IMG/VR virus record: IMGVR_UViG_2897352509_000007
DNA: 64,000 bases
Strand: one strand, 5' to 3'
Source of the DNA: a virus
Lineage: Duplodnaviria > Heunggongvirae > Uroviricota > Caudoviricetes
A program made the position numbers. Below, piece after piece: positions 18,001 to 21,000 of this stretch (positions are counted from its first letter, which is position 1; every line of letters begins with the position of its first letter).

Positions 18001-21000
18001 TATGGCGTTGAGATAGAAAGTCTGGTGCTGGAGATAAATGCACCGGCATCATCATAAAAAGTGAGCCAGTCAAATGGAAGGTATCGTTAAACTCACCGGT
18101 AGTGTCAGTGGGTCGTCTGAGACGCCTGCATGAGTTATCAGAGCCATCAGTAGTTAACTGGTGGCTTTTTTATTGTTGTCAGCTTCCGGATAACGGGAGA
18201 CGGGGTATGTACCAGATGGAAAAAATCACAACGGGTGTGTCATACACCACGTCAGCGGTGGGGACGGGATACTGGTTACTGCAGCTGCTGGACAAAGTCT
18301 CTCCGTCCCAGTGGGTGGCGATAGGCGTGCTGGGGAGTCTGCTGTTTGGGCTGCTGACATATCTGACGAACCTGTATTTCAAGATTAAAGAAGACCGGCG
18401 TAAGGCGGCGCGGGGAGAGTAAAGTGATGAAGAAAAAATACGAACTGGTTGTTAAAGGGATAAATAATTACCCGGATAAGATTACTGTTACTGTGGCACC
18501 GGAAATTGGTGGGTATCCGTCACTGTTGTTGCCAGATGTGGCGATTAGTCTTGACCGTACTGAAGGTGCCACGCTGGAGTTTTACGAAGCTGAGGCGAAA
18601 AAGCAGGCGAAGCAGTTTTTCATGGATGTTGCTGCCGGGTTATGTGAAGGGGATGGTCCGTTACCGGAAAAGCGTCCCGTAATTTTAGAGGCGCAGGATG
18701 TGTTGATAACCTACAGAGGAAAACTACCGGGAATAATTACGGGTTCTCTGAAGACTCCACCGCTGGCCTGAAGACTTAACATATCCAGGGATTTGAAATC
18801 GATAAACCCTGATAAATATCCATGAACGCAAAAATCAGATACGGCCTGTCGGCTGCCGTTCTGGCGCTGATTGGTGCAGGGGCGTCTGCGCCTGAAATCC
18901 TCGACCAGTTTCTGGATGAAAAGGAAGGTAACCACACCACAGCATACCGTGATGGTGCGGGTATCTGGACCATCTGCCGTGGAGCCACCCGGGGGGATGG
19001 TAAGCCTGTTATTCCTGGCATGAAGCTGTCGAAGGAAAAATGCGACCGGGTTAACGCCATTGAGCGTGATAAGGCGCTGGCATGGGTGGAGAAAAACATC
19101 AGAGTGCCGCTGACCGAACCCCAGAAAGCGGGGATCGCGTCATTCTGTCCGTACAACATTGGCCCCGGTAAGTGTTTCCCGTCGACGTTTTACAGACGGA
19201 TTAATGCAGGAGATCGAAAAGGTGCCTGCGAAGCGATTCGCTGGTGGATTAAGGACGGTGGCAGGGACTGCCGTATTCGCTCAAATAACTGTTACGGTCA
19301 GGTATCCCGTCGTGACCAGGAGAGCGCGCTGGCGTGCTGGGGAATCGACAGATAAGCAGAATATTTTGCTGAAAAATGAGGTTTGCTTACATGGACGGAT
19401 AACACGAAATCCTGCAAATTGGCAAAATGTAAGTGAATAAAGTCAAAACAGTTGTTTAACACTCAGGCACCGTAATGATGCCTTTGTCATTTCTGCGCAT
19501 CTCACGCGCATCTCACAACACAGAACCTTTCAGGATGACCCTTGAGGATACCGGTTTGGCTGTCGGTGCCTTTCTGTGGGCTGGATTCCTGTGAGACAAG
19601 GTTCATCACTAAAAGGAAATAACCGATGAATATGATGGCCGTGCCGTTTCACGGCAACTCTCTTTATGTAGTTAACCATAATGGCGAACCATACGTTCCC
19701 ATGAAACCTGTCGTTGCGGGGATGGGGCTGGCCTGGCAATCACAGTTGGCTAAGTTAAGACAGCGTTTTGCGTCAACTATAACGGAAATCGTTATGGTTG
19801 CTGAGGATGGGAAACAACGCAATATGGTGTCCATGCCACTTCGAAAACTTGCCGGCTGGCTACAAACCATTAATCCCAACAAAGTAAAACCCGAAATCCG
19901 CGATAAGGTCATCCGGTATCAGGAAGAGTGCGACGATGTTCTTTACGAGTACTGGACGAAGGGTTTTGTCGTTAATCCCCGTAAAATGAGCGTGATGGAA
20001 GAACTCAACCAGGCTTGTGCTGACATGAAACGGGATAAAAACATTGCCAGTGTGTTTGCTACCGGGCTGAATGAGTGGAAACAGGTTAAAGCCGCGCATG
20101 TATCAAAAATCCGTACGCTGGTAAATGAAGCGAATATGCTGATTGATTTTGTCCTGGCTGATACAGGCAAAGGGAAAATAACAAAGGCGGATTGATGGGG
20201 TGGCTAATGATATCAGATAAACTCATAACGCTGGTGAAGAGCCTCTGTGTACTTGTCGGCATTTCATTTTTAGTCATGCTGGTTGCCATTTTCTTTTCCA
20301 CCGCCTGGCGAGTCCTGACGTTATCGGGACTGGTGGGGTGAAAGAGAGATGAACCGTGTTCTGTGTGTGGTGATTATTGTCCTGGCGGTTGGCTATGGTG
20401 CGCTGTGGCTGGCAACAAACCATTACCGTGACAACGCGCTCACCTACAAAGCGCAGCGCGATAAAAAAGCCAGAGAGCTGGAACAGGCGAATGCCACCAT
20501 TACTGACATGCAGGTGCGCCAGCGTGATGTTGCTGCGCTCGATGCAAAATACTCGAGGGAGTTAGCCGATGCGAGAGCTGAAAATGAAACTCTGCGTGCT
20601 GATGTTGCCGCTGGTCGTAAGCGCCTGCGCATCAACGCCAACTGTCCAGGCTCCTTGCGTAAAGCCCCCATCACCTCCGGCGTGGATAATGCAACCGGTC
20701 CCCGACTGGCAGAAGCCGCTGAACGGGATTATTTCATCCTCAGAGAACGGCTGATGGCAATGCAGAAGCAACTGGAAGGAGCACAGGAATATATCCGTAC
20801 CCAGTGTATACCGTGATGTTTTGTTACGAAGGTGTTACTGGTAACGTTAAGGTAATTTAACAAAGAGTCAGTTCCGGACTTTATAGTGTGCTCAGTTCAT
20901 GGCCAAAAACGATTTCTGTGATAAATATTTTGAATATTATTTACAGGTAAATGGAGTGGGGCACATGGATAGAAATATTACAATAGAGTATGAAGTATAT

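Follow-up and report, generated by a model that had tools for sequence, protein, structure and literature searches.

The open reading frame (ORF) between the pinholin and SAR endolysin genes of the 64,000-nt caudoviricete sequence analyzed here (the window) belongs to the YdfR/DUF1327 family, which has already been catalogued, and is an ordinary representative in the usual location; the finding as such is already known. The initial annotation had described this gene as unassigned, which does not hold because it belongs to Pfam DUF1327 and the RefSeq 'YdfR family' and because ydfR of E. coli K-12 lies in the same position. The gene is widespread, with Stx1a and Stx2c phages as well as K-12 among its carriers, and it sits within one of the best-studied phage gene cassettes. 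As to its function, we favor, with a probability of roughly 45%, a late-expressed accessory cargo protein that would act on RNase E or RNA and not on the lysis machinery. The same estimate covers our reading of the window allele as a functional short allele, which has lost a variable C-terminal module and retained the N-terminal domain and the middle segment.

A YdfR-family gene in the lysis cassette

The ORF runs over 114 codons on the + strand from an ATG at 18427 to a TGA stop, and its product of 114 aa has a mass of 12.4 kDa, a pI of 5.5 and a GRAVY of -0.07. Residues 1-112 match Pfam DUF1327 (PF07041) with 155.2 bits (cut-off 25; E=5.4e-46), the product also matches PHROG 406 (E=3.8e-64), and in O157:H7 genomes RefSeq annotates identical coordinates as WP_000731259.1, 'YdfR family protein'. 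In a 36-sequence alignment that takes in K-12 YdfR, all family-invariant residues are kept in the window protein, namely Y5, V9-K10-G11, K18, R44 and E46-G47 as well as L50-E51-F52-Y53-E54, A57, F65, A69 and L72. Pairwise dN/dS of the ORF was ~0.3 among 39 distinct alleles (overall 0.34), with 0.27 for the N-terminal domain and 0.28 for the middle segment, and the ORF is under purifying selection; the values of its neighbors were lower (holin 0.11, lysozyme 0.08). The Pfam and PHROG matches, the dN/dS value and the RefSeq annotation together indicate that the ORF is far more than a chance reading frame. The gene initially proposed at 18427-18771 inside the lysis cassette is therefore real and conserved, with a coding signature. 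An NCBIfam search and a profile search of PDB sequences returned nothing informative for the ORF, and no second copy was found within the 64-kb window. The possibility that the ORF overlaps an RNA gene or a regulatory element was also considered and rejected, since Rfam gave no match inside 18100-19400.

The features of the region are as follows.

18207..18422, + strand: S21-type class II holin (pinholin, S), 71 aa, with Met1/Met4 dual starts (PF04971, E=8.5e-33)
18412..18426, + strand: putative coupling junction, GGGGAGAG (SD) - TAA - AGTG, followed by ATG 18427 (sequence; comparison of the window, PA21 and K-12)
18427..18771, + strand: YdfR-family (DUF1327) gene (Pfam PF07041; RefSeq WP_000731259.1)
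18427..18651, + strand: N-terminal core domain, aa 1-75 (AF2 model; alignments)
18652..18762, + strand: conserved middle segment, aa 76-112, LCEGDGPLPEKRPVILEAQDVLITYRGKLPGIITGSLKTPP (near-invariant alignment columns; dN/dS as above)
18763..18821, + strand: deletion scar and spacer (blastn breakpoints against L044, L004 and L089; allele lengths 103-329 aa)
18822..19355, + strand: lysozyme (R), 177 aa; N-terminus SAR-like and rich in Gly/Ala, motif E-x8-D-x5-T (PF00959, E=1.5e-24)
19626..20195, + strand: Ant-like gene (P22_AR_N; PF10547, E=1.4e-45; PHROG 524)
20349..20816, + strand: Rz i-spanin (PF03245, E=1e-46)
20569-20754: Rz1 o-spanin ORF, embedded in Rz in another reading frame, with a lipobox-like VVSAC

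The identification of the flanking genes as a pinholin and a SAR endolysin was borne out by the PF04971 match with its dual starts on one side and the PF00959 match with its SAR-like N-terminus on the other. The holin also matches PHROG holin families and is 80% identical to K-12 EssQ, and R is 90% identical to K-12 RrrQ. The good Shine-Dalgarno (SD) sequence claimed for the ORF is GGAG at 18414-18417, which lies within the 3' end of the holin gene, 9 nt from the ATG, and the holin stop TAA (18420-18422) leaves a gap of 4 nt to the ORF start. An in-frame GTG is present at 18424, upstream of this ATG. Neither promoter-like nor terminator-like sites were found between S, the ORF and R on the + strand, in agreement with the co-transcription suggested earlier, and from this layout the ORF appears to be translationally coupled to the pinholin gene and co-transcribed with the lysis genes. 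Comparison of the junctions in the window, PA21 and K-12 showed that the slot after the holin stop is taken by R in cassettes without ydfR, whereas R has no SD sequence in ydfR-bearing cassettes. The conserved SD-less motif GATAAACCCTGATAAATATCC is located upstream of R within the stretch 18763..18821, which also holds the last two codons of the ORF (LA) and its TGA stop. A holin-YdfR fusion protein, the arrangement of PF04971 plus PF07041 present in P0010 and P0068, was rejected here because a stop codon and the 4-nt spacer intervene. The GC3 of the ORF is 0.46 compared to 0.69 for the holin and 0.60 for R (range of S, R and Rz, 0.55-0.69), and a reduced GC3 relative to these core lysis genes is shared by the Ant-like gene. 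The latter is a second non-lysis gene inside the cassette, located between R and Rz.

Distribution, alleles and predicted structure

A ydfR homologue is present in 101 phage records, the whole S-ORF-R stretch in 86 of the 369 phage records that match the cassette, and the DNA of the gene in about half of the complete E. coli genomes (2923 of 5426), with up to 8 copies per genome. The initial view that the S-ORF-R arrangement is unusual is contradicted by these counts. The K-12 Qin prophage has the order essQ-ydfR-rrrQ, corresponding to S-YdfR-R, and strain PV15-279 carries 13 holin copies compared to 6 ydfR copies. The family is confined to Escherichia/Shigella. The gene starts exactly 4 nt past the holin stop and lies upstream of the lysozyme gene in all 92 gene-bearing loci among the 93 examined, and it takes the same position behind a different holin family, PF16080. 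Distant family members are located between tail genes or downstream of Rz. The N-domain also occurs by itself in proteins of 71-73 aa, and one 72-aa homologue adjoins HicB-like and ORF6N-family genes between tail genes.

K-12 YdfR (b1555, P76160), whose gene is flanked in Qin by those of EssQ, a class II holin, and RrrQ, a lysozyme, is 46% identical to the window protein over residues 1-74 with the invariant residues kept, but the two proteins have unrelated tails. At 103 aa, K-12 YdfR is shorter than the window protein (114 aa), and its gene overlaps rrrQ at the 3' end, whereas the window gene is separated from R by a 50-nt spacer; the middle segment 'PEKRPVILEAQ...KTPP' is present in the window protein and missing in K-12 YdfR. 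Much closer relatives are the 98-100% identical proteins labelled 'hypothetical protein' between S and R of H-19B, BP-4795, YYZ-2008 and Stx1a and Stx2c phages, which show no substantive difference; in the H-19B record (AF034975.3) the homologous ORF is present but unannotated. Hundreds of genomes carry the 114-aa allele in identical or near-identical form, as do plaque-forming phages (YYZ-2008, 100%; H-19B and BP-4795, 98%).

Alleles of the family range from 103 to 329 aa and are mosaic, with swappable C-terminal modules. Long alleles (176, 183, 268 and 329 aa; Stx2 phage 86 gp05; PHROG 2091 and 1085) are collinear with residues 1-112 of the window protein and up to 94-98% identical to it. 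They carry an additional C-terminal extension that looks coiled-coil-like by eye, and the longest have a further C-terminal domain; the window allele has neither, and the extensions did not match any entry of known function in Pfam, PDB or PHROGs. Homology of the window allele to the long alleles ends at 18762 and restarts ~65 nt upstream of the R start in blastn comparisons, and the window allele is a clean deletion derivative of longer forms of up to 329 aa. Many other alleles have a premature stop followed by 230-450 nt of non-coding DNA, and frameshifted and split versions of ydfR occur.

Prediction of the structure from the single sequence gave an unusable AF2 model (pLDDT 41), and a usable model, limited to the N-terminal domain, was obtained from an alignment of representative-library matches. 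In this model, residues 1-70 (pLDDT 71-90) form three beta-strands and one long helix, and the domain contains the invariant motif DR-EGA-LEFYEA. The N-terminal domain (aa 1-75) matches residues 1-72 of K-12 YdfR, the portion sufficient for an RNase E two-hybrid signal (PMC13232886), and the middle segment (aa 76-112) had a pLDDT below 40. No transmembrane segment, signal peptide or amphipathic anchor was found in the ORF product, and its maximal Kyte-Doolittle value in a 19-residue window is 0.89 compared to 1.83 for the adjacent holin; the protein is predicted to be soluble and acidic. It did not show the combination of a significant alpha-beta-beta-beta-alpha structural match and a basic RNA-binding surface by which a dsRBD-like domain would be recognized. 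PADLOC defence models yielded one non-significant match for the ORF (E=0.021, 12.9 bits) and none for the long alleles.

Possible functions of the YdfR-family protein

The only functional data reported for the family concern the binding of K-12 YdfR to the catalytic half of RNase E (PMC13232886). In the two-hybrid assays of that study, a signal with Rne was obtained from residues 1-72, and full-length YdfR with a short linker scored only against Rne1-597; in addition, Rne1-598-FLAG eluted together with Strep-YdfR, and DNase-resistant nucleic acid/RNA co-purified with K-12 YdfR (PMC13232886). The contact could be RNA-bridged, because the two-hybrid signals were accompanied by co-purification from extracts without a nuclease control (PMC13232886). 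Overexpression of K-12 YdfR was not toxic, caused no growth defect and changed few transcripts, and ydfR of K-12 was almost without RNA-seq reads under standard growth (PMC13232886). Several RNase E-targeting phage proteins are known, namely T4 Srd, T7 gp0.7 and phiKZ Dip, and the N-terminal, catalytic half of the enzyme is the target of Srd (PMC4980113), the same region as that reported for K-12 YdfR. These proteins are encoded by virulent phages and are established effectors of RNA decay, whereas for YdfR only binding was reported, with little effect of overexpression on the transcriptome (PMC13232886); the likeness is a possible functional one, without established kinship in sequence or fold. 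Our literature search found no paper joining 'ydfR' and 'holin', and the gene is not mentioned in the accessible portion of a survey of Stx-phage lysis cassettes (PMC8136144).

We propose the following only as a working model. YdfR-family proteins, which lambdoid prophages in Escherichia and Shigella encode, would be small, soluble, acidic and cytoplasmic, and the coupled slot right after the pinholin gene suggests, from the anatomy of the cassette, that the Q-dependent late transcript yields them along with the lysis proteins. By homology to K-12 YdfR, the most likely activity of the window protein would be binding of its N-terminal three-strand-plus-helix domain to the catalytic half (N-terminal) of host RNase E and/or to associated RNA, and in the late phase of the lytic cycle this binding might modulate RNA decay, broadly like other RNase E-targeting phage proteins. 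In Stx1a and Stx2c phages, the late transcript that includes the ORF would also carry stx. Should the RNase E lead prove correct, the protein would be the first temperate-phage RNase E effector, and in some phages its gene would share a transcript with those for Shiga toxin. A more specific version, in which the DUF1327 N-terminal domain is a prophage RNase E effector that stabilizes or reshapes late mRNA and so sets the output of holin, endolysin and Shiga toxin before lysis, seems unlikely to us; if true, half of all E. coli genomes would encode, in this domain, a temperate-phage equivalent of T4 Srd or phiKZ Dip. The RNase E idea leaves unexplained the constant position of the gene between holin and endolysin in Escherichia.

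A rather doubtful alternative is a cytoplasmic lysis modulator, stoichiometric with the pinholin, that tunes timing, for example via the S21 cytoplasmic tail or the unreleased SAR endolysin; a variant of it, doubtful to the same joint degree, holds that insertion of ydfR lowers translation of R, which would lose its coupling to S. The strict synteny and the recurrence behind the PF16080 holins are consistent with such a role, as is the R gene lacking an SD sequence in ydfR-bearing cassettes and being coupled in ydfR-less ones. Lysis regulators encoded beside the holin and co-expressed with it are known, as in the S21 71 antiholin isoform, P1 LydB and T4 RI, and the window ORF would resemble them in both respects. 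However, the S21 71 isoform and T4 RI reside in the membrane or periplasm, whereas the window protein is predicted to be soluble and acidic, without a signal or transmembrane segment or an amphipathic anchor, and to be dispensable in near-isogenic cassettes. Phage PA21 has an S 96% and an R 97% identical to those of the window, with ydfR absent and R starting 4 nt after the S stop, and many other 933W-like Stx2a phages, which are lysis-proficient, likewise join near-identical S and R genes directly. Because S is joined directly to R in these cassettes, ydfR is not a core lysis component; an antiholin would be kept wherever its cognate holin-endolysin pair is kept, and ydfR is not, while the holin retains its dual-start antiholin motif with or without ydfR. 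Absence of the gene from near-identical cassettes, named at the outset as evidence against a lysis function, thus speaks against any necessary role but does not reach a subtle modulation. Also unfavorable to a lysis modulator are the distant family members after Rz or between tail genes and the normal growth upon overexpression of K-12 YdfR (PMC13232886). The Keio ydfR mutant did score in a CPRG envelope screen (PMC3879167 supplement; cited in PMC13232886), but this phenotype could be polar on the overlapping SAR lysozyme gene rrrQ. On sequence grounds, ydfR appears accessory and dispensable for lysis, and the analysis argues against the lysis-timing, accessory-lysis or anti-holin factor of the initial annotation, for which no positive support emerged.

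A moron-type cargo gene in a permissive, highly expressed slot, with a host-directed role unrelated to RNase E (superinfection exclusion, anti-defence or lysogen stress fitness), is improbable in our estimate, although several properties of the gene fit it. Presence/absence polymorphism and deviant base composition, both expected of a moron, are found in ydfR, whose GC3 lies below that of the core lysis genes as in the Ant-like gene lodged in the same cassette; the mosaic alleles with swappable modules, the restriction to one genus, the dN/dS relaxed relative to the neighbors and the 72-aa homologue beside HicB-like and ORF6N-family genes point the same way. On the other hand, no promoter and terminator of its own flank the ORF on the + strand, so that expression from a repressed prophage is not expected, and the scarcity of K-12 ydfR reads under standard growth (PMC13232886) agrees with this; no PADLOC defence model was matched, and nothing positive points to any specific alternative target. 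Least probable, and quite unlikely, is a decaying remnant of a ~330-aa ancestor, in which the non-functional 114-aa allele would persist only as a ribosome-loading site between S and R. The clean deletion, the alleles with premature stops and trailing non-coding DNA and the frameshifted and split versions would suit such decay, but dN/dS is ~0.3 in both retained segments, stand-alone N-domain proteins exist, residues 1-72 of K-12 YdfR suffice for the reported interaction (PMC13232886), and the 114-aa allele is carried by hundreds of genomes and by plaque-forming phages.

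Identity and distribution of the gene

The ORF of interest lies between the pinholin gene (S) and the SAR-like lysozyme gene (R) of the lysis cassette:

18207-18422, + strand: S21-type class II holin ORF, 71 aa (PF04971, E=8.5e-33), with the Met1/Met4 dual start kept
18427-18771, + strand: YdfR-family ORF, 114 aa, with an ATG start and an in-frame GTG one codon 5'
18822-19355, + strand: phage lysozyme ORF, 177 aa (PF00959), with a Gly/Ala-rich SAR-like N-terminus

The initial annotation described an extra ORF with a Shine-Dalgarno (SD) sequence just after the holin stop, and its coordinates were confirmed. 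A gap of 4 nt separates the holin stop TAA (18420-18422) from the ORF ATG, and GGAG at 18414-18417 lies 9 nt 5' of this ATG. No promoter-like or terminator-like site was found on the + strand between the holin, ORF and lysozyme genes. A terminator-like hairpin (18140-18168, +) with a 12-bp stem and a T-run is located about 40 nt 5' of the holin start, within a stretch expected to belong to the Q-antiterminated late transcript.

The full-length ORF matches Pfam DUF1327 (PF07041) with 155 bits (cut-off, 25), as well as PHROGs 406, 2091 and 1085, all without known function. The window is a lambdoid prophage of E. coli O157:H7 with 99.8% identity to strain TW14359 across 10 kb, and RefSeq places WP_000731259.1, a 'YdfR family protein', at identical coordinates. 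The ORF had been regarded as unassigned and its insertion between S and R as unusual; it is instead a catalogued, annotated member of a known family in the usual position for that family, and not new. The family namesake in the K-12 Qin prophage occupies the same slot (essQ, holin; ydfR; rrrQ, lysozyme; rzpQ/rzoQ). K-12 YdfR shares 46% identity with the window protein at residues 1-74 and is unrelated beyond residue 74; for the flanking genes, identity to the window is 80% for the K-12 holin and 90% for the K-12 lysozyme.

Among 93 loci examined, one (phage PA21) was fetched as a cassette without the gene. In all 92 gene-bearing loci the gene is directly 3' of an S21-type holin and 5' of a lysozyme, where the locus included flanks, with a gap from the holin stop of 4 nt in the window and IMG/VR loci and 3 nt in K-12 and PhiR12_5. 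The ORF DNA is present in 2923 of 5426 complete E. coli genomes, at up to 8 places per genome. Homologues were detected by tblastn in 101 of 50,697 phage records, exclusively from Escherichia phages, and these include the plaque-forming YYZ-2008 (100% identity), H-19B and BP-4795 (98%), Stx2 phage 86 and mEp460. An exhaustive phmmer search of 1.84 billion cluster representatives yielded just 54 matches, each with at least 39% identity, and when one genome was scanned for each of 185,579 species, the gene was confined to Escherichia coli, E. ruysiae, E. albertii and Shigella; therefore, the family is young and limited to one genus. Two extra matches in the species scan were MAG contigs with E. 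coli-like cassettes, which look like contamination. MAG contigs labelled Veillonella parvula (L010) and Bacillota bacterium (L012) carry E. coli-type essQ-ydfR-rrrQ cassettes whose holin (77-80%) and lysozyme (90%) identities to the window equal the K-12 values, probably reflecting binning contamination and not a broader host range.

Pairwise NG86 comparison of 39 distinct alleles gave a dN/dS of 0.34 (0.27 for the N-domain, residues 1-75, and 0.28 for the middle segment, residues 76-112; holin 0.11, lysozyme 0.08), which shows that the ORF is genuinely coding and moderately constrained by purifying selection.

Protein and allele anatomy

The window protein (12.4 kDa, pI 5.5) has no hydrophobic segment, with a maximum Kyte-Doolittle value of 0.89 versus 1.83 for the holin, and is therefore soluble and cytoplasmic. 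An AF2 model built with 32 diverse homologues confidently placed the N-domain (pLDDT 71-90) as three antiparallel strands (residues 6-14, 18-27 and 38-43) and a long helix (50-76), while residues 80-114 were poorly modelled. Invariant residues gather in a DR-EGA-LEFYEA motif where strand 3 meets the helix.

The N-domain also occurs alone in proteins of 71-73 aa, and it is common to alleles of 103, 104, 110, 114, 116, 148, 169, 176, 183, 206, 268 and 329 aa. Most alleles share the middle segment, and the C-terminal modules vary between them, some having a premature stop, after which come 230-450 nt that do not code. The YdfR family is strongly modular. None of the C-terminal modules of the long alleles matched anything with known function. 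Homology of the long alleles to the window stops at 18762 and restarts about 65 nt 5' of the R start codon, and the window frame closes two codons after 18762; the window allele is a clean deletion derivative. The stretch deleted in the window contains an antisense ORF in long-allele phages, annotated between ydfR and R (3645-3959, -, in comparison locus L004; 3244-3504, -, in L005); its label is 'hypothetical' for Stx2 phage 86 and 'DUF1823 containing' for PhiR12_5.

Bearing on lysis and the RNase E lead

The whole S-ORF-R stretch was found in only 86 of 369 phage records matching the cassette; in most of the others S abuts R directly, and the two genes are 89-96% identical at the DNA level. 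Phage PA21 is such a cassette: its holin is 96% identical to that of the window with the same MYQMEK dual start, its lysozyme is 97% identical with differences confined to the first few codons, and R starts 4 nt past the S stop using the same GGAG. The single genome of O157:H7 PV15-279 has 13 such holin genes versus only 6 ydfR copies. Absence of the gene from near-identical cassettes, which the initial annotation had named as a refuting outcome, is thus observed. The lysis-factor role that had been proposed is unsupported and, on this ground, partly refuted. Sequence comparison rules out a necessary role in lysis, and a modulatory one may be left. In ydfR-bearing cassettes, R starts in a conserved SD-less context, GATAAAYCCTGATAAATATCC-ATG (window 18772-18821), and the end of K-12 ydfR reads through the motif GATAAAYCCTGATAAATATCC; ydfR-less cassettes use GGAG in the holin 3' end instead. 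Insertion of ydfR moves R out of the coupled slot, and R translation could fall as a result.

That the product modulates lysis timing is consistent with the strict synteny and the coupling to the holin, but seems improbable given the lack of a membrane segment, the dispensability of the ORF and the absence of toxicity. Some linkage to lysis is favoured by a diverged DUF1327 subgroup (Logan contigs L097-L100), which recurs between a second holin type (PF16080, 101 aa) and a PF00959 lysozyme; in L097 (~3677-4517) the gene is split into 72-aa and 107-aa ORFs. A specific tie is argued against by GC3, which in the ORF (0.46) resembles that of the Ant-like gene (0.50) and not those of S (0.69), R (0.60) and the spanin gene Rz (0.55), and by where the most distant DUF1327 members lie: both are stand-alone proteins of 71-72 aa encoded away from the holin-endolysin junction. 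L096 (503-718) has its copy directly after Rz; the copy in L094 (4001-4219; CP075169.1, a 6.4-Mb genome) sits between the lambda-like tail genes M and L and has HicB-like and ORF6N-family genes as neighbours. Base composition, mosaicism and presence/absence polymorphism would also fit a cargo gene with another host-directed role, a reading we consider about equally doubtful; the ORF has no PADLOC match and no promoter of its own. Still less probable is a decaying remnant: deletion and premature-stop alleles exist, but dN/dS is about 0.3 and an identical short allele is widespread in viable phages.

The sole experimental data on the family come from Gopel et al., RNA Biol 2026 (PMC13232886). 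A two-hybrid screen that used RNase G as bait picked up K-12 YdfR residues 1-72 three times, the signal was stronger with RNase E than with RNase G, full-length YdfR was positive with Rne1-597, and Rne1-598-FLAG co-eluted with Strep-YdfR from cell extracts (PMC13232886). The eluate was rich in DNase-resistant nucleic acid, and the YdfR assays included no nuclease control (PMC13232886), so RNA may bridge the contact. YdfR overexpression caused no toxicity and altered few transcripts, and K-12 ydfR is essentially silent in standard growth (PMC13232886). Among phage RNase E effectors, T4 Srd binds to the catalytic half of the enzyme, T7 gp0.7 phosphorylates its scaffold, and phiKZ Dip blocks the sites where it contacts RNA (PMC4980113). 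Because the window protein retains the entire interacting domain and all invariant residues, and in view of the K-12 data and these effectors, it is most likely a late-expressed accessory protein whose N-domain would bind RNase E and/or RNase E-bound RNA and might thereby modulate RNA decay in lytic growth. For this reading, the analysis establishes the homology and the setting for expression. The gene is very common in a classic cassette, in Stx1a and Stx2c phages it shares its transcript with stx, and the RNase E lead is now testable.

A CPRG envelope screen lists the Keio ydfR mutant in its score tables and among its orphan-gene hits (PMC3879167 supplement). We suspect a polar effect, since ydfR extends into the beginning of rrrQ, the SAR lysozyme gene.

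Neighbourhood of the cassette

Two tRNA genes (16481-16556 and 16637-16713, +) lie 3' of a DNA methyltransferase gene; one has anticodon CAU (Met by ARAGORN, Ile by RefSeq) and the other is tRNA-Arg (UCU). This layout resembles that of Stx-phage late regions; neither the annotation nor the ORF list contains stx in the stretch from the tRNAs to the holin. The interval separating the tRNA genes from the cassette has matches to the STnc100 sRNA (16823-17031, +; Rfam 175 bits, above the gathering score) and to AgvB, a prophage-encoded anti-GcvB sRNA (17033-17092, -; 56.6 bits versus a cut-off of 56). Two RefSeq partial pseudogenes at 17237-18057 (+), with DUF1737 N-terminal and DUF6645 C-terminal fragments, look like what is left of the large esterase-type gene ('SASA family carbohydrate esterase') that other copies of this prophage type carry 5' of the holin.

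The cassette is interrupted a second time between R and Rz by the Ant-like gene (P22_AR_N; 19626-20195, +). An ATGA overlap joins it to a strongly hydrophobic 49-aa ORF (20192-20341, +) directly 5' of Rz/Rz1, which matches PHROG 4906 (function not known); this small membrane protein beside the spanin genes may be a candidate lysis-associated factor. Just 3' of the cassette, ahead of the terminase genes, is a PerC-family transcriptional regulator gene (21280-21594, +).
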